From assembly GCF_053078305.1 (NCBI RefSeq), contig NZ_CP166879.1: a stretch of 64,000 nt of DNA; one strand, given 5' to 3'. A program made the translations under genes and the position numbers. The stretch's first letter is position 1. Every line of letters begins with the position of its first letter. The notes under the pieces were generated by a model. The model did not search any database, was not told the origin of the DNA, and was given only the letters and a program-made list of their open reading frames with translations. Of the stretch, positions 1,823 to 43,030 are shown piece after piece.

Positions 1823-2458
1823 TTACCAGCCACCACCGCCTCCGCCACCCGCGCCGCCGCCAGCACCACCACCGGAATAACTTCGCCCCAACAAACTGGT
1901 ATTGGCCCCCAGACTCAGGTGCATCTGTAATGAGAACAAAACGCCACTACGGGCAATTTCCGGGGCGCTAACAGCCGCTGTGAGTGATGGGGTGATACGT
2001 GCTACCCATTCTCTTCCAAGGTTTGCTGAGACTGCCCAACCTGGCAACGCGTAATCCAGTTTCCGTGTTTCCCCTTTCCGCCGCCGCCCACTGTGTGTTG
2101 CCGCCTCTTTACGCGCAAGATAGTTAACGATAGCTTCACCGTGGGCATAACGTTGCTGCCCAGTTTGGGTAAACTTTGGCAGAAAAATATACCCCATACC
2201 AGTGAGATAACCGGTCAGGAAAACAGCGCTAAAATAACCCGCTGGCATATACCAGTAAAAGAATACATCTCCGACATTGATATAGAGAGAATAAAAGGCC
2301 ACGCCTGAACAAATCAGCGGTAAAAACAAAGTGATGATTACACGATTAACGCAAGGCTTGTCATCATCGCGGGCAAACAAAAGCTCAAGGGAGCAAAATA
2401 AAAAAGGAAGAAGCCAGCAGATCATAATAAACATATCGCCCATGTAACCAGGTAAATC
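1823..2458 (-). pseudogene. yciQ: yciQ 3' fragment (C-terminal part of DUF2207-type membrane protein), separated from its 5' part by the prophage
   Basis: ORF with hydrophobic segments and Gly-rich C-terminus; the other half of the same gene is on the same strand at 41765-43030. Junction position approximate. Confidence 0.75.
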
Positions 2459-2459
2459 A

Positions 2460-2616
2460 TTTGATACCGACAAGGGTTTTAGTGAAAGGAGGTGAAATCA
2501 CCTGTAAGATACTGAAATAAAACAGGTGATCGATGATTCTGGAGGTTGTTTAGTTTTGATACTGATTAAATAAAATCCGGTATAAAATTAAGGTATCGGC
2601 AACAAATTTGATACTG
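2460..2616. repeat. left-end transposase-binding repeats (attL-like), copies of GATAC(C/T)G / CGGTATC
   Basis: Seen at 2460-2470, 2555-2566, 2592-2599 (inverted) and 2607-2616; same motif clustered at the right end. Confidence 0.6.
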
Positions 2617-2747
2617 CACATACTGCTTATGGACGTTTTTAAAAGTACTTAAAATGTCTTTTATGCTAAAAAGTTTATATCAATATCGATCTGGTCACAA
2701 ATCAAGTTGAAAGTGCTCGCTAAGTGCATAGCCTGGGCTTCATGGGG

Positions 2748-3266
2748 TTACGCTTTGGCTTCTTTATGGGTTAAATTGAAATGATGCTCCTTGGTTTCAT
2801 CTCCCTCGAAAATCTCTCTAACCTTTTGATCTGATAAATTATTAAGGCTCAATGCTGCCAGGCGTCGAATACCTGTTAAAGCGATCAACTCTTGATTCTC
2901 TTGATTGCAGAATTCCAGCAATTTTTCTACCCCTTTCCTTCTCAAGGTGTAAATAACTAATTCTTGCTCTTCTTGGCTCAAAGTGTCGATGAGTTCGAGC
3001 AACTCGCTATTGCCACCGTTCTTTTGAGGGGGCTGGTGTTTTATTTCTGCACTACCTGTAATGATGGAAACAACATGTGCAGGTAAGTCGCTTAAACGGT
3101 AGGCAAATGCTCTCCCTCTGATACCAGGTGTAGTTACCGAACGTTTTTCCCATCCTTCATTTTTTGCTCGTTTATGAAGCCCAGCCAGAGATGAAGGAAG
3201 ACCTCCAACCCCCAACAAGTCACTGGCAAGGATCCATTCTTGGTCAAGGATCATATCAAACTCCAT
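2748..3266 (-). CDS. Mu c-like repressor
   Basis: Leftward 172 aa ORF at the left end; its N-terminal motif DLxGxGGLPSSLAGLHKRAKNEGW is shared with the transposase N-terminus (DLPSSLAGLHKKAKREAW), as in Mu c and A. Confidence 0.75.
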   Translation of the reverse strand: MEFDMILDQEWILASDLLGVGGLPSSLAGLHKRAKNEGWEKRSVTTPGIRGRAFAYRLSDLPAHVVSIITGSAEIKHQPPQKNGGNSELLELIDTLSQEEQELVIYTLRRKGVEKLLEFCNQENQELIALTGIRRLAALSLNNLSDQKVREIFEGDETKEHHFNLTHKEAKA

Positions 3267-3483
3267 TTGATATTAACTTTTGTTTATATCTTTTATGCGG
3301 TTTATTTCAAAAATAACTCAATAAAAAACAAATAGATACAGAGCAAATTTAAAAATTTGAAATTAACCAGTTGATATTTACTAAGTTAATATCTAACATA
3401 TCAAACATACACTAGTGAGTAACTCAATAGAGTAGCACACATGAGTAATAAAGTTTGCCATAGAAAGTACACAGGGGGCCATT
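3267..3483. promoter_or_regulatory. divergent early promoter/operator region between repressor and ner
   Basis: AT-rich 217 bp intergenic region with reiterated TTGATAT(T)TAC / TTAATATCTAAC / ATATCAAAC half-sites. Confidence 0.5.
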
Positions 3484-3729
3484 GTGAGTCTTATTGAAGA
3501 TTGGTCTTCCGCCGATATAAAGGCAGCCTTAGAAAAACGCGATACCAATTTGTCACGTTTATCAAGGGAAAATAATTTGCAGCCTAGGACTTTGGGTAAT
3601 GCTTTGCGAGTTCCCTACCCTAAAGGTGAAAAGATAATTGCTAGGGCTATAGGTGTAGAGCCACAGGTTATTTGGCCTACTAGATATGAACGACGTGCGC
3701 GGAGGAAATATGTGGGTTGCAATGACTGA
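3484..3729 (+). CDS. ner: Ner-like DNA-binding regulator
   Basis: 81 aa ORF resembling recalled Mu Ner (…LSRLSR…TLGNAL…PKGEKIIA…EPQVIWPTRY), first rightward gene. Confidence 0.8.
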   Translation: MSLIEDWSSADIKAALEKRDTNLSRLSRENNLQPRTLGNALRVPYPKGEKIIARAIGVEPQVIWPTRYERRARRKYVGCND

Positions 3730-5794
3730 ATTGATTTCATTCAGTGACCTACCTAGTTCTTTGGCAGGTCTGCACAAAAAAGCAAAGAGGGAAGCGTGGA
3801 AAACGCGGCTAAAACCAGGGGTAAAAGGGAAAGTTTTAGAGTGTGAAATAGGAGCTTTGCCTTTAACTGTTCAGCAGGCAGTACGCGAACGCCATGCCCT
3901 GCAACTGATGACGCAAAAAGCCGATGAATCACCGGCTCCGGTGGTGACAAAGGCCAGACGCTCACCTGCCGTGGTTGATGCGGTGGAGGCATATCGCGGA
4001 TCACCCCAACTGATGGTCGAACGCCTCAATGCCCTGACTGAAAATCAGCGCCAGGTGGCTGATGCACGAATCGCGATCGTCAGCGAAGTTCTGAAAGTCG
4101 CGCAACAACCTGGTTTCAGCTGTGCGAAGGCTATCCGGTTTATCGTTGACAACCTGGCACGTTCGCAGTTGGACGAGCGCATTGTGGCAATGGTTGAGAC
4201 GGCGAACGCCAAAAAGGGAAACAGCCGCGCGTTAAGTGAAATCACGCTGAAACGCTGGATTGCGGCCTTTAACAAGGCGCAGAACGCCGCTGAACGCCTG
4301 CTTTTACTGGCACCGGGTAAGCGCCAGGAAATAAAAGCCGAAGATATTAACTGGCTGCCCGAATTTCTGGCGCAGTATCGCCAGTCAAACGGCCGACCAA
4401 TGACCGAGGCTTACGAGGATTTTGTCGCTGAATGGCAGCACCGGCACGCCGATGAGCCTTATATGCTCGATATCATGCCGTCTTATGACACCATTCGCCG
4501 CGCAATGAAGAAACTGCCGGAAGTGGTGAAACAAAAAGGCCGGGTGACCGGCAGTGAATACCGCCAGCTTGAGGGATTCACGCGCCGCGACTGGTCAAAA
4601 ATGCCGGTGAATTATGTCTGGATTGGTGACGGTCACGGCATGAAGCTGAAATGCGCACACCCGGTTCACGGTCGGCCATTTGCACCGGAAGTGACCTTTG
4701 TTATCGACGGTGGCACGCGCTTTGTGGTGGGCTGGAGCCTTGACCTGGCTGAAAATGTTTTCGCCGTAGCCGGTGCCATACAGCACGGCATTCGCCATCA
4801 CGGCAAACCGTTTCTGTATTACTCGGATAACGGCTCCGGGGAAACCGCCGACATCCTGGATAAGGAGGTTGTGGGGATACTGCCGCGACTGGGGATTAAT
4901 CACCCGACCGGGATTGCCGGTAATCCGCAGGGACGAGGCATTATCGAACGGCTTAACCGCACATTACCGATGCGCATAGCCCGTAAATACCGCACCTATT
5001 TCGGGAAAGGTGCAGATCGCGAGACGTTACGCAAAACCAACCGCGATTTACGCTCGGCATTTACTGCCCTGCAACAGGGCAAACGGCTGAACGCCCGGCA
5101 GCAGTCAGCGATGCGTGATTTACCGTCCTGGTCTGAACTGATTGATGCCATTCGTGACGGTGTTGAGTGGTACAACAACCGGCCGCACGATGAATTACCG
5201 GTGAAGCCGAACGGCAAGCATTACAGCCCGGCGGAGTTCAGAAAAAAACGCCTGGCGGAAGAGGACACGGAAATTGAATGGCTGTCCGATGTTGAGCTGC
5301 GGGATATGTTCCGGCCGATGGTGGAACGCCCTGTAAGACGCTGTGAAATACGCTGGCTGAATAATATTTACTACGCGCCCGAGCTGCGTGACGAGCATGG
5401 TCGTAAGGTGCTTATCAGCTATGACATTCATGATGCCGAACGAATTACCGTACGTCGCCTGGATGGCAGCGTGATTTGCGAGGCGGTATGGGACGGTAAT
5501 AAACGCGAAGCCTTCCCGGTTAGCGCGGAATACTACAAACAGCAGCAACGCCTTAAAGGCATGCGTAAACGCGCAGAGGAAAAAATCCGTGATGCCGAGG
5601 ATGAGGTTGTCAACGTGCTGGAGCACAAGCCGCAGGAGCCCTGGCTGGAAAACATATACCGCCCTGTGGGTAATACGGTGACCGTTCAGCAACCGGTCGC
5701 TGACGATGAACCTGATGAAGAATACGAGCGTAATTTCCAGCGGGGATTGCAGTTGCTGGAAGCGAAATTAAAAGAAAATGACCCGCTGGCCTGA
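3710..5794 (+). CDS. Mu-type DDE transposase A
   Basis: ~700 aa ORF with repressor-like N-terminal DNA-binding domain; GGAGG at 3701-3705 favours the ATG at 3710 over the in-frame ATG at 3686. Confidence 0.85.
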   Translation: MWVAMTELISFSDLPSSLAGLHKKAKREAWKTRLKPGVKGKVLECEIGALPLTVQQAVRERHALQLMTQKADESPAPVVTKARRSPAVVDAVEAYRGSPQLMVERLNALTENQRQVADARIAIVSEVLKVAQQPGFSCAKAIRFIVDNLARSQLDERIVAMVETANAKKGNSRALSEITLKRWIAAFNKAQNAAERLLLLAPGKRQEIKAEDINWLPEFLAQYRQSNGRPMTEAYEDFVAEWQHRHADEPYMLDIMPSYDTIRRAMKKLPEVVKQKGRVTGSEYRQLEGFTRRDWSKMPVNYVWIGDGHGMKLKCAHPVHGRPFAPEVTFVIDGGTRFVVGWSLDLAENVFAVAGAIQHGIRHHGKPFLYYSDNGSGETADILDKEVVGILPRLGINHPTGIAGNPQGRGIIERLNRTLPMRIARKYRTYFGKGADRETLRKTNRDLRSAFTALQQGKRLNARQQSAMRDLPSWSELIDAIRDGVEWYNNRPHDELPVKPNGKHYSPAEFRKKRLAEEDTEIEWLSDVELRDMFRPMVERPVRRCEIRWLNNIYYAPELRDEHGRKVLISYDIHDAERITVRRLDGSVICEAVWDGNKREAFPVSAEYYKQQQRLKGMRKRAEEKIRDAEDEVVNVLEHKPQEPWLENIYRPVGNTVTVQQPVADDEPDEEYERNFQRGLQLLEAKLKENDPLA

Positions 5795-5865: not shown

Positions 5866-6798
5866 ATGACTGATATTAACGATGTAATCAAGACCATTGA
5901 TGAACTTATTGATGGCGGCGTACTGACGCAGTATGCCATCGCCAGAGAGGCGGGAATTTCCGACGGCACATTATCGGCTTTCCGTAAGGGAAAATATAAA
6001 GGCGATAACGCTGCTGTGGCTGCTTCCCTGCGTTCCTGGTATGAGAACTGGAATAAACAAAGCGCACTGCCGGAACCGCCGCAGTTTGTGGAAACGCAGA
6101 CAGTCCAGGAGCTGCGCACACTGTTTCAGGCGGTTCGTCTGATGGGCTGTATTAACGTTATTGTGGGCGTACCGGGTGTGGGTAAAACGGCCACTGCCCG
6201 TAATTACTGCCAGGAGCAACCAAACACCTGGATGATCACCCTGTCACCCGCGCACTCCAGCGTCACGGAGTGTCTGCTGGAGCTGGCCGATGCGCTGGGG
6301 ATTGATTACACCCGCGCGAACAAAGGGGCATTATCCCGCGCCATCCGCCGTCGCCTGATGGGAACGCGTGGACTGGTGATTGTGGATGAGGCGGATCATC
6401 TTGGTATTGACGGTCTGGAGCAACTCCGGGCAATTCAGGACGCCACGGGGATCGGGATGGTGCTTATTGGTAACCCGCGCGGATTGTTTAAAGGTGGACG
6501 CCGCGCCTTTGATGATTTATCGCGCCTGTTCAGCCGTCTTGCCCGTACAAAACAACTTCGCAAGGCCAAAAAGGCGGATGTGCTGGCCATTGCCAGTGCG
6601 TGGGGGATCAGTGGTGAGGCCGAGCTGGCCGTCATGCAGGCTATCGCTGAAAAGCCGGGAGCGTTACGCGTTCTGACACATACGCTTAACCAGGCGTGGC
6701 TCACCGCCAGCGGTGAAGGCGCGGCGCTGACAGAAAAACATATTAATGCGGCCTTTAAAGAGGTTTATACCAACCCTGAATTACTCTCACAGGTGTGA
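5866..6798 (+). CDS. MuB-like transposition ATPase / target DNA activator
   Basis: 310 aa with Walker A GVPGVGKT and Walker B LVIVDEAD, immediately after the transposase. Confidence 0.85.
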   Translation: MTDINDVIKTIDELIDGGVLTQYAIAREAGISDGTLSAFRKGKYKGDNAAVAASLRSWYENWNKQSALPEPPQFVETQTVQELRTLFQAVRLMGCINVIVGVPGVGKTATARNYCQEQPNTWMITLSPAHSSVTECLLELADALGIDYTRANKGALSRAIRRRLMGTRGLVIVDEADHLGIDGLEQLRAIQDATGIGMVLIGNPRGLFKGGRRAFDDLSRLFSRLARTKQLRKAKKADVLAIASAWGISGEAELAVMQAIAEKPGALRVLTHTLNQAWLTASGEGAALTEKHINAAFKEVYTNPELLSQV

Positions 6799-17517: not shown

Positions 17518-19106
17518 TGGGACGTATAATTGATCTTGACGGAAAACCTTTCTCCTTTGACCCGGAGATGCAGAGTGCCGCGCTGGATATTCCGCAGATT
17601 GCCAGCCGTTATATTGAACATCCGGCCTCGGGTATCACCCCGAACCGGGCGGCGCAGTGCCTTCGCGGGGCTGAACGTGGCGATCTGATTGCCCAGTCCG
17701 ATCTGGCCGCTGACATTGAAGAAAAGGATACCCACCTTTTTGCAGAGCTGGGCAAGCGACGTCTTGCCATTCAGGGGGTGCCATGGAGTATTGAGCCGCC
17801 ACCGAACGCCAGCGCGAATGAGAAAAAGGACGCGGAAATGCTCGACGAATATCTGCATTCCGCCGACTGGTTTGATGCCATGCTGTTTGATGCCACCGAT
17901 GCCATCCTGAAGGGCTATTCCTGCATGGAGATTGAGCACGGGATGCTCGGTAAAATGCACATCATCCGCGCCATCCGCTGGCGTGACAGCGGGCATTTCT
18001 GCCTTAACCCGGATGATTTGAGCGAACTGCGGCTGCGTGACGGCAGCCATGCCGGGGTGGCGTTTCAGCCCTTTGGCTGGATAGTGCATCAGTCGCGTTC
18101 ACGCACTGGCTACGGTGGTGCGACGGGGCTTGTCAGAACGCTTATCTGGCCGTTCATTTTCAAAAACTATTCCGTGCGCGATCTGGCTGAATTTCTGGAG
18201 GTGTACGGCCTGCCGATGAAGGTCGGGAAATACCCGTCCGGGGCAACACCGGAGCAGAAAAGCGCCCTGATGCGGGCGGTGATGGATATCGGGCGACGTA
18301 CAGGCGGGATCATCCCTGCCGGGATGTCGCTGGAGTTTCAGGCAGCCGCGAACGGTCAGGCCGATCCGTTTGAAACCATGATTTCGTGGGGGGAGCGTTC
18401 CATCTCCAAAGCTATCCTCGGCGGCACGCTGACCACGGAAGCCGGAGACAAGGGCGCGCGTTCGCTGGGTGAAGTGCATAACGAGGTGCGCCGGGAAATC
18501 AGGGATTCTGATTTACGTCAGCTGGCCGCCACGCTGAACCGCGATCTGGTGTATCCGCTGTATGCCCTGAACACCGCCCACGCCATTGATATCCGTCGCC
18601 TGCCGCGTATCTGTTTCCAGACCAAAGAGCCGGGGGATATCACCAAAATCACCAGTGCGGTGATGCAGCTCAGTACGGGGATGGATATTCCAGATCCCTG
18701 GGTACGGGAGCAGACCGGTATTCCACAGCCAGCCCCCGGTGAAGCCATCTTCCGTGTCCGGCAGAGCAGTAATGAACCCGCGCAGATCAACAGGGAAACA
18801 CCGCCGGAAAAACAGGAAAAGACAGAGCAGACGGCGCTGTCAGCCCGAGTGCCGGAAGCGAAAAGCAGCCCCCGTGATGAACTGGACGACATGGGGGATG
18901 CGGTGCCTGCCCGCCGGTTACAGGAGGCCATCGACCCGCTACTGGAGCCGGTCATTGATGCCATCAGAACGCGGGGGCTGGCGGATGCGCTGGCAGACCT
19001 GCCTGCCCTTTACCGTGAAATGGATGATTCCCGCCTGATGACGCTGCTCAGTGATGCCATGTTTGCTGCGGAAATGAAGGGGATGCTGGATGGCTCAGGG
19101 GATTGA
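17508..19106 (+). CDS. portal protein (Mu gp29/H-like)
   Basis: 532 aa ORF following the large terminase. Confidence 0.8.
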   Translation: MLVVGRIIDLDGKPFSFDPEMQSAALDIPQIASRYIEHPASGITPNRAAQCLRGAERGDLIAQSDLAADIEEKDTHLFAELGKRRLAIQGVPWSIEPPPNASANEKKDAEMLDEYLHSADWFDAMLFDATDAILKGYSCMEIEHGMLGKMHIIRAIRWRDSGHFCLNPDDLSELRLRDGSHAGVAFQPFGWIVHQSRSRTGYGGATGLVRTLIWPFIFKNYSVRDLAEFLEVYGLPMKVGKYPSGATPEQKSALMRAVMDIGRRTGGIIPAGMSLEFQAAANGQADPFETMISWGERSISKAILGGTLTTEAGDKGARSLGEVHNEVRREIRDSDLRQLAATLNRDLVYPLYALNTAHAIDIRRLPRICFQTKEPGDITKITSAVMQLSTGMDIPDPWVREQTGIPQPAPGEAIFRVRQSSNEPAQINRETPPEKQEKTEQTALSARVPEAKSSPRDELDDMGDAVPARRLQEAIDPLLEPVIDAIRTRGLADALADLPALYREMDDSRLMTLLSDAMFAAEMKGMLDGSGD

Positions 19107-20533: not shown

Positions 20534-21007
20534 ATGTCATCCATCGATGCAGCCGTGGTGGTGGACGTTGCGCGTCTCCAGCGGGTCTTTGCCCGGCTTC
20601 AGTTTGTGGGTGGTGGAAAAGACCTGGCCCGCAGTGTGGCGGCGAGTCTTCTGTCATCGTCAGAAATGGCGTTTGAACAGGAAAAAGAGCCGGACGGCGA
20701 ACGCTGGCATGACTGGTCAGATCCTTACCGCAAGTGGCGTACCCGTAAGGGATACATGCCCGGCAAAATCCTGACGCTGAACGGCGATCTGGCCCGACGC
20801 CTGACCACGGATTATGGCGACACCTGGGCGCTGATTGGATCAAATGAGCCTTATGCGGCCATTCATCAGTGGGGTGGCCTGCCCGGTATGCCACCGGGAC
20901 CGGCGGCCATTGGTGCACGTCCGTATATGGGCTTTGATCAGGTGGCAGAGCAGGAGATCATGGACGAAATCAGAAAACGCTTTAAAAAGGCCACAGAAAC
21001 GCCTTAA
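20534..21007 (+). CDS. Mu G-like virion morphogenesis protein
   Basis: 157 aa ORF between F and the protease/scaffold gene. Confidence 0.7.
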   Translation: MSSIDAAVVVDVARLQRVFARLQFVGGGKDLARSVAASLLSSSEMAFEQEKEPDGERWHDWSDPYRKWRTRKGYMPGKILTLNGDLARRLTTDYGDTWALIGSNEPYAAIHQWGGLPGMPPGPAAIGARPYMGFDQVAEQEIMDEIRKRFKKATETP

Positions 21008-37254: not shown

Positions 37255-39312
37255 ATGAATATTATGACGTCCAAATGGGTTCAACTATCATCAATGCCCG
37301 GAAACTTTACCGTTAAAGTTTCCGGTGGTACAGCGGCATTTCTTGAGGCTCCTTTTCCTCCGGCTGAAACGAAAGGAGGAATGACATTTGCTGACTGTCT
37401 CATCAGTTTTAATACACAGGATTGCCTGTGGGTAAGGCCAGTATCCGGTGATCCGAACGTGGAAATTACCGGAGCGGGTATTGGTGCTGTCATTCCGTTA
37501 AGTGCTGATGTTGCCGGTACTACTGAACCGTCAGACTGGGATAATGCTGAAACACATACCCGTCCGGCAGGAAATGAAACGGCTTCCAGCTCCCCTTCCT
37601 GGTATTACGTGATTGTTATAGCCGGTCAGTCCAATGCTTCATCTTATGGTGAAGGGTTGCCCCTGCCGGATTCTTATGATCGTCCTGATCCACGTATTAT
37701 GCAGCTGGCACGCAGGAATACACAAACCCCCGGAGGTATTCCCTGCAAATACAATGAAATCATTCCAGCAGATCACTGCCTTCATGATGTTCAGAATATG
37801 AGTCTGCTGAACCATCCAAAAGCAGACCTGAAAAAAGGGCAGTATGGTTGTGTGGGTCAGGGACTTCATATTGCGAAAAAAGTATTACCGGTGATTCCTG
37901 CTGATGCCGGGATTTTACTGGTTCCCTGTGCCCGTGGCGGCTCTGCTTTTACAACCGGCGCAGTTGGCTCATTCGATCCGGCAAGTGGTGCAGCCGAGGC
38001 GTCACTACGCTGGGGAGTGGATACCCCACTGTATCAGGATCTTGTCAGTCGAACGAAAGCGGCACTTGAGGCGAATCCAAAGAATGTGCTGTTATCTGTC
38101 GTATGGATTCAGGGGGAAGGAGACCTTAAAGCGACCCCGGCCCAGCATGGTGCCCAGTTTACTGCGATGGTGAAAAAATTCCGTGCGGATCTTGGTGCTT
38201 TCTCCGGTCAGTGTATTGGTGGTTCATCAGACAGTGTGCCGTGGTTATGTGGTGACACAACCTATGACTGGAAAGAGAAGAACCCGGCGGCATATGAAAC
38301 CATTTATAGCGGATATAAAAACCGGGCTTCCGAGAACATTCACTTTGTTCCACTGATGCACGATGAGTTCGGTAATAAAACCGCGACCAACCTGCCGGAG
38401 CACGACCCGGATATCGCTTCTGCCGGGTATTATGGTGCGGAATCACGGGGAGATGGCAACTGGACAACAGCATCCAGGGCAACCCATTTTAGCTCCTGGG
38501 CGCGCCGTTTTCTGGTCTCAGATCGTTTTGCATCAGCAATTCTTAAATATGCAGGTCTGACCTCTGCATTTATTGCCGGTGTGGCCCCTGATGGTGAAGC
38601 CCTGCCTCAGCCCGCGCCGGGTGGAAAACCGGAAGCTCCGACAGGTAGTCAGCCAGGAAGCAGTGAGTCCCCCCAGCCGACATCCCCGTCACTCCGTACG
38701 CTGCTTTCACTTAAAGCATCAGCAGGGGAAGCCCCGGCTCAGGGATGGAAAATTACAGATGGTACAATCCAGCTGACGGACGAAGGTAAAGCGCTGACCG
38801 TATCCAAACAAAGCGGAAAAACCTGGTCACTTACCCATGCGACCAGTGCTGCCGGAGAGCTGTTGCAGCATGGTGGTCAGTTGACCTGTAAATTCCGTCT
38901 GTCAGGTGAAGTAAAAGAAGGCCAGTTTGCTCTGGGTATTTACCTCCACACCGATACGGTCCCGGAAGGTGTAACCATGAGTGGTACAGGCACACCGTTC
39001 CTGATGGCGTATTATCTCCAGACAACAGGCGGCCAGTTAAATCTGATGCACCATAAAACAGGGGGGAATACGAAACTGGGATCATTTGGAGCCTACAATA
39101 ACCAGTGGCATACACTTGTCCTGAAGTTTACGGCGGGAAGTGCCCAGGTAACGCCTGTGCTGGATGGCACTCCGGGCCAGGCATTCCAGATGGTGAAAGA
39201 TGCACTTTCCCCTGCCAAAGATACGCTGACACTGACAGATGTCACCAAAGGGGCAACTTATGGCGTGTCTTTTGAGAGCGTTGTCCTTGAGGTTAATACC
39301 CCTGCGGCATAA
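37255..39312 (+). CDS. NanS-like SGNH esterase (putative 9-O-acetyl sialic acid esterase) with C-terminal extension
   Basis: 685 aa; residues ~115-430 closely resemble recalled E. coli NanS/YjhS (YYVIVIAGQSNASSYGEGLPLPDS…DTPLYQDLVSRTKAAL…CGDTT…DRF); ~250 aa extra C-terminal domain. Confidence 0.7.
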   Translation: MNIMTSKWVQLSSMPGNFTVKVSGGTAAFLEAPFPPAETKGGMTFADCLISFNTQDCLWVRPVSGDPNVEITGAGIGAVIPLSADVAGTTEPSDWDNAETHTRPAGNETASSSPSWYYVIVIAGQSNASSYGEGLPLPDSYDRPDPRIMQLARRNTQTPGGIPCKYNEIIPADHCLHDVQNMSLLNHPKADLKKGQYGCVGQGLHIAKKVLPVIPADAGILLVPCARGGSAFTTGAVGSFDPASGAAEASLRWGVDTPLYQDLVSRTKAALEANPKNVLLSVVWIQGEGDLKATPAQHGAQFTAMVKKFRADLGAFSGQCIGGSSDSVPWLCGDTTYDWKEKNPAAYETIYSGYKNRASENIHFVPLMHDEFGNKTATNLPEHDPDIASAGYYGAESRGDGNWTTASRATHFSSWARRFLVSDRFASAILKYAGLTSAFIAGVAPDGEALPQPAPGGKPEAPTGSQPGSSESPQPTSPSLRTLLSLKASAGEAPAQGWKITDGTIQLTDEGKALTVSKQSGKTWSLTHATSAAGELLQHGGQLTCKFRLSGEVKEGQFALGIYLHTDTVPEGVTMSGTGTPFLMAYYLQTTGGQLNLMHHKTGGNTKLGSFGAYNNQWHTLVLKFTAGSAQVTPVLDGTPGQAFQMVKDALSPAKDTLTLTDVTKGATYGVSFESVVLEVNTPAA

Positions 39313-40760: not shown

Positions 40761-40961
40761 ATGTATCGAAACATACGGTGCCGACACTGCAATAAGCTAC
40801 TGGCACGGGCCAGTTTCAGTTATCTGGAAGTAAAATGTCCGCGCTGTAAAACCCTCAATCAAATCACATCTCCGAGCGCCACAGAGCACCCCACATACAC
40901 AAGGAAATCCTGTCGTGGGGAACAGAAAGCAAGTCACATCCCGTATCATCAGCACGCCTGA
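40761..40961 (+). CDS. com: Com-like zinc-finger translational activator
   Basis: 66 aa from the ATG at 40761: [14 protein letters not shown]…[10 protein letters not shown], two CxxC pairs as in Mu Com; 3' end overlaps the mom start. Confidence 0.7.
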
Positions 40962-41652
40962 ACTTATTCGCTATAACGACAATATCGTTGGTTATGGTTC
41001 CCGTGAGTTGCGGGTTGAGACAATAAGTTGCTGGCTGGCCAGACTGGTTATCGTCAATAAACATTACAGCCACCGTTTCGTAAATAACTCCTACCTTCAT
41101 CTGGGCATATTTTCAGAACGGGAACTTGTTGGCGTAATGCAATGGGGTTACGCCCTTAACCCAAACAGTGGTGCACGCGTCGTAACGGGTACGCAGAACC
41201 GAGAATATATGGAGCTGAACCGGCTATGGATGCATGACTGTATGCCGAGAAACTCCGAATCAAGGGCAATCAGTTACGCGCTCAAGCTAATCAGGCAGCT
41301 TTATCCGCAGGTACAGTGGGTTCAGTCGTTTGCAGATGAGCGTTGTGGCTGTCTTGGTGTCGTGTATCAGGCAAGCAATTTTGATTATGTAGGCAGCCAT
41401 GAAACAATATTCTATGAACTTGATGGCGAGTGGTATCACGAGATTTGCAGGAATGCCATTAAACGAGGCGGACAACGAGGTGAACATCTGAGGGCTAATA
41501 TCGACAGAGCCAGTGTGCATAAGTTCCGACAGTTTCGTTACATCCGGTTTCTGAACAAGAGGGCCAGAAAACGCCTCAACACAAAGCTATTCAAAGTCCA
41601 GCCTTACCCAAAACCACAAACAGTTAAAACTGGTTTGAAAGAGAGTGAATGA
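40915..41652 (+). CDS. mom: Mom-like DNA modification protein
   Basis: 245 aa ORF (GTG start) overlapping com and located at the right phage end, the Mu com/mom arrangement; function by position and architecture. Confidence 0.6.
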
Positions 41653-41710
41653 GCGCTTAAAAACTCATTCTAAAACTCAAAAGAAAAGCGCCGATTTAGT
41701 ATCAAATAAG

Positions 41711-41764
41711 TTGCGTATCGGCGTTTTTCAGCGGTATCAAATGAAATGCAAATCGGTATCAAAA
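41711..41764. repeat. right-end transposase-binding repeats (attR-like)
   Basis: CGTATCGG (41714-41721), GCGGTATCAAA (41731-41741), TCGGTATCAAA (41753-41763), inverted relative to the left-end copies. Confidence 0.6.
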
Positions 41765-43030
41765 AAATCGCCGCGCTATACCCACCAGACTCATTCCTGC
41801 CCAGCCTACAGGACTCAGGTTACCGTAAAGAATGACCGCCAATATTGCCAGTCCACCCCATTGCAAAAAAGTATCAGGCCGGTAAAACGAAGACTTTTTA
41901 CGCGGCAGATAAAATTTCTGCATCCGTAAAAATGCCCTGCGTAAGACTCTGTTGCGTCTCCCCGTAAGAACGACCTTATCGCCTTTACGAAATAACGCTT
42001 CCAGTAATAACTGCTCTGCGGGCAGTAATACCTCATTATTTCTGGTCGCGCCTTCATTAACACGAATCAGGATTTGCTGGTTCTTATCATACTGATCTTC
42101 CAGATGAATTTTTCCTTTCACAATCAGATTTACGATATCGGCACAAAACCCTTTATCGTCGTAAACCAGCTTCGCATCGAGACGTAACATGCCGGGCGTG
42201 TAATCTGGCGGAATGACATCGGTTTCAATCACATCTACCGGCGTAAATTGCGGCCTGCGCTTCCAGAGATATAACCATCCACAAACCAGGAATAGACACG
42301 GAAACCAAATTAACAACGATGACGTGGAGGGTAAAAGAAGATGGCTGAAAATATTCGTCGTTTGTGGAGCCGGGGCATTGCTAAGTAACGAGTGAGGCCA
42401 ACGGTAGAGGACCGTGAAATCTTCACGATAAAACGGATCGCTGGATTCAATTCTTCCGTCCTCAAGGATGCGGCCATTTCGATATGTGTCGCCCTCTTCT
42501 CCAGTAAAGAGATCGATTTCGCTAAATGGATTACCCGCGATATCAGGGAACTTGAGTGAAAATCGGGTCTTATAGATTTCAAACGGCCAGTGGTTACCAG
42601 TCACGTTCCAGATTAACAGATCTGAATCTCCCTCACGCAGGAAAGCATTTTTAACCTGATAATGAATTTGATAATGATAGTCGCCTTGGGGCAAGAAACG
42701 TTGTTTATCGCCCACGACAATACTCATTAACCCGATATGCCAGTCAAGATGCCAGGGTTCAGGAATACCATCACGGGTTACGCCAACAATATGATAGTTC
42801 AGCAGTGCTGCGTCCCCATCAGGCTGCATCCAGAGTCGTGGTAAATCACGATAAAATCCGTGCTTAATCTGCTGATTTCGCGCCTGAAAATGAATGTTCT
42901 CTTTGATGTCGAGCACCCCATCCGGTTGCAGAGTGGCTTCAGAAGGGATCTCCGTGTTTTCTGCATAACTTAGAGATGATACAAACAGCCCTGCTATCAA
43001 CAGCAAAATGCAGCGAAACTTCCCTGCCAT
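41759..43030 (-). pseudogene. yciQ: yciQ 5' fragment (N-terminal part), truncated by the prophage; stop codon formed at the junction
   Basis: 423 aa ORF with signal peptide whose TGA (41759-41761) lies inside the phage terminal motif. Confidence 0.75.

Follow-up and report, generated by a model that had tools for sequence, protein, structure and literature searches.

Prophage and interrupted host gene

The window, by which we mean the whole stretch of 64,000 nucleotides analysed here, contains both halves of yciQ and, between them, a Mu-like prophage that is bounded on either side by a copy of the host tetranucleotide CCCA (Table 1). The preliminary description had recognized the insertion in yciQ as a transposable prophage of the Mu type, and in this general respect it was right. 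Assignment of the prophage to the Sp18 type is based on alignment to Sp18-like copies from STEC and on the published description of such phages (PMC10132054).

Table 1 Features of the prophage and of the flanking yciQ fragments (window coordinates)
Feature	Position	Strand	Remarks
yciQ 3' (C-terminal) fragment	1823-2442	-	Includes left CCCA; 99.7% identity to annotated yciQ of PS10-3 and others
Target-site duplication CCCA, left copy	2439-2442		Intact allele ATATCGCCCACCAGAC; window ATATCGCCCA/TGTAACC
Prophage, Sp18-type Mu-like	2443-41780	+	39,338 bp; termini 5'-TG...TA-3'; same ends in 8 other copies at 8 loci
AAATC, left copy	2454-2458		Prophage-internal, nt 12-16 from left terminus
L1 core TTTGATACCG	2460-2469	+	Outermost putative transposase-binding site; starts at nt 18 from terminus
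L2 core	2555-2562	+	Putative site; offset 113 from left end
L3 core	2607-2614	+	Putative site; offset 165 from left end
c-type repressor, 172 aa	2748-3266	-	Mu DNA-binding domain; Pfam HTH_Tnp_Mu_1, E=1.5e-6
MuA-family DDE transposase	3686-5794	+	702-aa ORF; RefSeq relatives begin 8 codons later (694 aa)
MuB-type AAA+ target-delivery ATPase	5866-6798	+	49% identity to Mu B over 300 aa, E=3e-98; Pfam Phage-MuB_C
mom, DNA modification	40915-41652	+	Last gene before right end; Pfam Mom, E=3e-77
R3 core	41699-41706	-	Putative site, inverted relative to L1-L3; offset 75 from right end
R2 core	41734-41741	-	Putative site, inverted relative to L1-L3; offset 40 from right end
R1 core	41756-41763	-	Putative site, inverted relative to L1-L3; offset 18 from right end
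AAATC, right copy	41765-41769		Prophage-internal, nt 12-16 from right terminus
Target-site duplication CCCA, right copy	41781-41784		Window GCGCTATA/CCCACCAGAC
yciQ 5' (N-terminal) fragment	41781-43030	-	ORF enters prophage by 22 nt, stop at 41759-41761, 423 aa

The transposase gene adjoins the gene for the MuB-type ATPase. Both Pfam domains recognized in the transposase scored above their cut-offs (HTH_Tnp_Mu_1, 34.8 bits with a cut-off of 23.3; Mu-transpos_C, 63.8 bits with a cut-off of 21.7), and the protein falls into phrog_310 (transposase; E=2e-206). Its identity to MuA is 21-32% (BLASTP E=4e-9). A search against the sequences in PDB retrieved the MuA N-terminal domain and, weakly, the catalytic cores of retroviral integrases; the MuA core was not matched in that search. 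The close copies in RefSeq encode gam, mor, lysis genes, Mu-type head and contractile-tail genes, a gin-like recombinase, com, and mom, and a small HTH (ner-like) gene is also annotated in close relatives.

Junctions and target-site duplication in yciQ

Aligned to an intact yciQ allele, the window has host sequence up to position 2442 and again from 41781 onwards, which delimits the prophage to 2443-41780. When the left flank (1700-2458) was compared with 5,426 complete E. coli genomes, 3,976 gave a match to yciQ; the best of these matches all end at query base 743, i.e., at window position 2442. From the other side, matches to related prophages extend to the first and the last base of 2443-41780. 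The prophage thus delimited starts with TGTAACC and ends with GCGCTATA.

The intact yciQ of strain PS10-3 reads ...ATAAACATATCGCCCACCAGACTCATTCC..., while the window reads ...ATAAACATATCGCCCA/TGTAACCAGGTAAATCATTTGATACCG... across the left junction and ...CGGTATCAAAAAAATCGCCGCGCTATA/CCCACCAGACTCATTCC... across the right junction (slashes mark the prophage boundaries). The host sequence that is duplicated consists of CCCA only, a 4-bp direct repeat. Excision in silico of the prophage together with one CCCA (2443-41784) produces an 80-nt junction that equals intact PS10-3 yciQ, and the resulting yciQ ORF of 621 aa runs to the native C-terminus ...GGGGGGGW. We consider it close to certain that CCCA is the true target-site duplication and that the prophage is of the Sp18-type, Mu-like kind and was inserted in yciQ by DDE transposition.

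The restored YciQ of 621 aa is shorter than the reference of 631 aa because of an in-frame deletion near the 5' end of the allele. Compared with PS10-3, yciQ lacks 30 nt at 42941/42942 (5' region, minus strand), and residues 31-40 (YEEGISLFDV) are absent from the YciQ of this strain. This deletion is unrelated to the prophage junction. In its interrupted state, yciQ retains an N-terminal ORF of 423 aa (41759-43030, minus strand) that runs 22 nt into the right end of the phage, and an ORF of 216 aa (1823-2473, minus strand) that comprises the C-terminal part and has a TTG start inside the left end of the phage. Truncated or fusion products of the interrupted gene are thus possible.

Termini and 4-bp duplications across the prophage family

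Nine of about 280 copies of the prophage family, located at nine different loci, were read at base level at both junctions. All copies read have the same termini, TGTAACCAGGT(A/G)AATCATTTGATACC...CGGTATCAAAAAAATCGCCGCGCTATA, and hence TG...TA ends. An exact 4-bp repeat flanks each of the nine insertions, namely CCCA in yciQ (this window), CGAG in hyfF, TTTT between yahO and yahN, CTGA in ypdA, ACTA in ydeE, CGTT in melA, TGCT in torZ, and AGAG and CATC in the Stx phages LC727895 and LC727881, respectively. A 5-bp repeat was found at none, and a fifth base matched at one of nine insertions on one side and at two of nine on the other, which is the rate expected by chance. Three of the sites (yciQ, melA, and torZ) were checked against empty alleles; the melA and torZ sites reconstructed with a single 4-mer aligned as one ungapped piece that covered the whole query at 100% identity. 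The Mu-like JNE phages in the two Stx phages had already been annotated independently in GenBank with 4-bp repeat_region features ('duplication due to insertion of Mu_JNE...') at positions that agree with our reading, and thus have duplications of the same length as CCCA here. Canonical Mu in E. coli W, read as a control, gave GCCGC/TGTATTG...CGCTTCA/GCCGC, i.e., 5 bp and TG...CA. The terminal T on the left and the terminal A on the right are constant at nine insertions whatever the target base, and they therefore belong to the phage and not to the target.

The strongest competitor of a 4-bp duplication is a canonical one of 5 bp (GCCCA or CCCAC), of which one copy was point-mutated after insertion. 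Mu-family transposases are expected to produce 5 bp, one substitution would make either pentamer match, and the combination of a TA right end with 4 bp, which goes against the TG-CA rule (PMC8705779), could suggest that the boundary was misplaced by 1 nt. However, the supposedly mutated base would then have to be A on the right side or T on the left at every one of nine insertions, although the left-side target bases are g, t, a, g, c, t, c, t, and t. Both 5-bp alternatives also misfit the empty-site sequence and the other eight insertions, whereas 4 bp is the length at which the melA and torZ reconstructions are perfect and which the GenBank annotators marked as well. We therefore regard a mutated 5-bp duplication as very unlikely.

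Further placements of the ends were tried and rejected. A CA right end would have to use the nearest CA, at 41783-41784, which is part of yciQ and of the host repeat, and the sequence past TATA differs at every locus. A reading with 5 bp, whether GCCCA/ACCCA or CCCAT/CCCAC, is contradicted by the empty site and does not hold for the nine insertions; with 6 bp (TA and four more bases), the left flanks do not agree.

The AAATC repeat inside the prophage ends

The preliminary description had proposed AAATC, with some doubt, as a candidate 5-bp target-site duplication of the Mu type, and had noted that excision on this basis leaves yciQ one base out of frame. The pentamer is indeed present at both positions given for it, and deletion of 2459-41769 does shift the frame by one base, with the ORF ending at 444 aa. 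Taken as a real duplication, AAATC would have the canonical Mu size (PMC8705779), and it lies at equal distance from the outermost motif cores, with a single A between each copy and its core (TTTGATACCG at 2460-2469 on the left, CGGTATCAAA at 41754-41763 on the right); the frame problem would then be put down to an extra indel or to a yciQ that was already damaged. Yet this requires that 16 nt (2443-2458) and 11 nt (41770-41780) be assigned to yciQ, although they are absent from intact yciQ and accompany the prophage at eight other, unrelated loci. Both copies of AAATC are thus not immediately at the junctions, as had been supposed, but inside the prophage. Neither is the match conserved within the family, since GAATC stands in place of the left copy in four of the nine related prophage copies (L005, L006, L008, and L009). 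Nor was AAATC the sole pentamer shared by the junctions, as ATCGC, TCGCC, and ACCAG are also common to them once the real junctions are included. By chance alone, mononucleotide-shuffled versions of the two terminal 17-mers have some 5-mer in common in about 17% of trials, and 25-nt windows treated likewise in 41%; AAATC occurs 103 times on the plus strand of the window. We judge a real AAATC duplication to be exceedingly improbable; the repeat is a chance match inside the prophage. That AAATC might belong to a symmetric motif of the two ends was also considered and rejected, as the inverted alignment of AAATC with GATTT matches at 2 of 5 positions and that of the terminal segments at 8 of 17.

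The pentamer was mistaken for the duplication because the outermost cores, TTTGATACCG and CGGTATCAAA, were taken as the termini, by which 17 nt were missed on each side. Excision on that basis leaves 31 extra nt in yciQ (16 and 11 phage-terminal nt and the 4 nt of the second CCCA), which explains the frame error of +1. Among the explanations that had been offered for this error, a true junction different from the one called was the correct one, with the real ends 16 and 11 nt further out. An extra indel and a previous disruption of yciQ need not be invoked, as the junction contains neither. Base-level alignment of both junctions to intact yciQ, the check that had been named beforehand, accordingly gave CCCA as the duplication that restores the frame and left AAATC as coincidental. 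The expectation of TG...CA termini was borne out in part: TG is found at the left end, but the right end is TA, and the ends lie 17 nt outside the binding motifs. The puzzle of the yciQ frame is thereby closed without an unexplained frameshift, a hidden indel, or an older yciQ lesion.

It is likewise barely credible that the CCCA repeat is no footprint of transposition but reflects microhomology used in illegitimate recombination or an artefact of assembly, because, short as 4 bp is (a single match has a chance of about 1 in 256), nine independent loci have different exact 4-mers next to identical element termini, three empty sites have a single copy, and the element encodes the complete MuA/MuB module and has end sites in an ordered arrangement.

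End sites and a possible route of insertion

The 8-mer core TTTGATAC occurs eight times in the 64 kb; three of these copies are located at the left end of the prophage and three, in inverted orientation, at the right end. Judged by their sequence and arrangement, these six cores are putative transposase-binding sites that are inverted between the two ends. Phage Mu has an end layout of L1/L2-L3 and R1-R2-R3, which is mirrored by the arrangement of the cores in the Sp18-type prophage.

By analogy with Mu, insertion could have proceeded as follows. The MuA-like transposase would assemble on the six end sites, three per end, and would nick after the 3'-terminal A of each end, i.e., on the bottom strand of the left end (...CA-3') and on the top strand of the right end (...TA-3'). 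With the help of the MuB-like ATPase, the 3'-OH ends would be joined to target phosphates 4 nt apart, and gap repair or replication would then give the 4-bp duplication of CCCA. The nick positions and the 4-nt stagger are those that we infer from the biology of Mu.

D315, D381, and E421 of the transposase, as read from the alignment, are candidate catalytic residues. The second of these aspartates would be separated from the glutamate by 40 residues. The corresponding spacing in MuA is 56 (D336/E392), and thus longer than in the Sp18-type transposase. A different geometry of the active site, and hence a different stagger, is plausible on these sequence grounds, and the short D-to-E spacing may bear on the 4-bp stagger.

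Comparison with Mu, B3-type phages, and Leptospira prophages

The Sp18-type prophage shares much of its organization with Mu and D108 (Muvirus). Common to both are a c repressor divergent from the early operon, the genes ner, A, and B, as well as gam, mor, and com/mom, an invertible segment of the gin type, near-random insertion, and a MuB homologue (49% identical). Three transposase sites, putative ones in the prophage, are present at each end: L1 is terminal, L2 and L3 follow about 100 nt further in, and R1-R3 form a cluster. Nucleotide similarity between Mu/D108 and the prophage in the window, in contrast, is confined to part of B, and Mu has 5 bp and TG...CA where the Sp18 type has 4 bp and TG...TA.

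Departures from the Mu pattern are on record. Mu duplicates 5 bp and B3 6 bp, and conserved TG-CA ends are stated for every Mu-like or B3-like phage known, with the exception of Leptospira prophages (PMC8705779), among which those of the WETA type have TA at both ends (PMC8705779). B3-type phages, which have a Tn552-like transposase, and the TA-TA prophages of Leptospira thus likewise deviate from the rule of 5 bp and TG...CA. They differ from the Sp18 type, however, in that they make a 6-bp duplication and use another transposase family, whereas the Sp18 type combines 4 bp with MuA N- and C-terminal domains.

It is conceivable, though we would put it somewhat short of probable, that the Sp18 type represents a MuA/MuB lineage that has a 4-nt target stagger and accepts a TA right terminus. 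No duplication length is stated for Sp18 or Mu-like STEC phages in the literature searched, where 4 bp appears only in GenBank features, and no paper was found in the searchable literature that gives 4 bp for a Mu-like phage, either by itself or together with a TA right terminus. There is a modest residual chance that the signature of 4 bp and TG...TA is undescribed in print, though GenBank annotators have already recorded it. If it is truly undescribed, the family would offer a natural comparison for what sets the stagger length in DDE transpososomes. In practical terms, a prophage family that is common in STEC breaks two hallmarks of Mu, and automated detection often uses 5- or 6-bp repeats and TG...CA. 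Members of the family should be delimited by TGTAACCAGG...GCGCTATA and a 4-bp repeat, and not by the first TTTGATACCG-like motif or by the rule of 5 bp and TG...CA.

Distribution and variable regions of the family

Among the 5,426 complete E. coli genomes, 232 contain relatives of the prophage; these occupy about 280 places, and their ends are 97-99.8% identical. Most are found in STEC, and some reside inside other prophages or on plasmids. The many insertion sites are unrelated and without att specificity, and include yciQ, hyfF, ypdA, melA, torZ, ydeE, the yahO-yahN interval, other prophages, and plasmids. No match in the 5,426 complete genomes crosses the yciQ::prophage junction. The insertion site in yciQ is the sole new feature of a prophage whose family is known and common.

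Sp18 of E. coli O157:H7 Sakai was predicted to be intact, and its DNA is packaged efficiently (PMC2669165). Sp18-like Mu-like phages occupy strain-specific loci (PMC2669165, PMC7430833, PMC10132054); strains of CC119 have one to three copies of Mu-like phages at variable sites, and the Mu-like JNE phages resemble Sp18 (PMC10132054). In our comparison, Sp18-like STEC phages, such as Phi804-3 of FRIK804 and Mu_JNE122137 and Mu_JNE082796 in Stx phages, have the same terminal sequences as the prophage in the window and collinear genes, and are inserted at variable loci. They differ from it in the insertion site, here yciQ, and in the type of c repressor.

The immunity region with the c repressor type of the window (2443-3300) is common to 12 of 233 matching E. 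coli records. The other 221 records match the terminal 88 bp only (2443-2530), which points to a family whose immunity modules vary while the left end in front of them is conserved. Two of the copies read at base level, L005 and L006, encode a 203-aa HTH repressor in place of this c repressor.

A relative, L002, has a RefSeq feature 'tRNA-OTHER' (18487-18566; corresponding to about 20,600-20,800 in the window), as do other relatives, between the head-morphogenesis and virion-morphogenesis genes; ARAGORN predicted no tRNA in the whole window. Between the gin-like recombinase and com/mom, a cargo gene is followed by small ORFs up to about 39830, and relatives have DUF1378 and DUF826 genes after the cargo gene. 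It encodes a protein of 685 aa (37255-39312, plus strand) with a SASA sialate O-acetylesterase domain and DUF6645, which is probably of the nanS-p type found in STEC lambdoid phages; PADLOC gave no match that would assign it a defence function. A further 97 E. coli records match the prophage in the mom gene only, at 60-80% identity, and represent other Mu-like lineages in E. coli.
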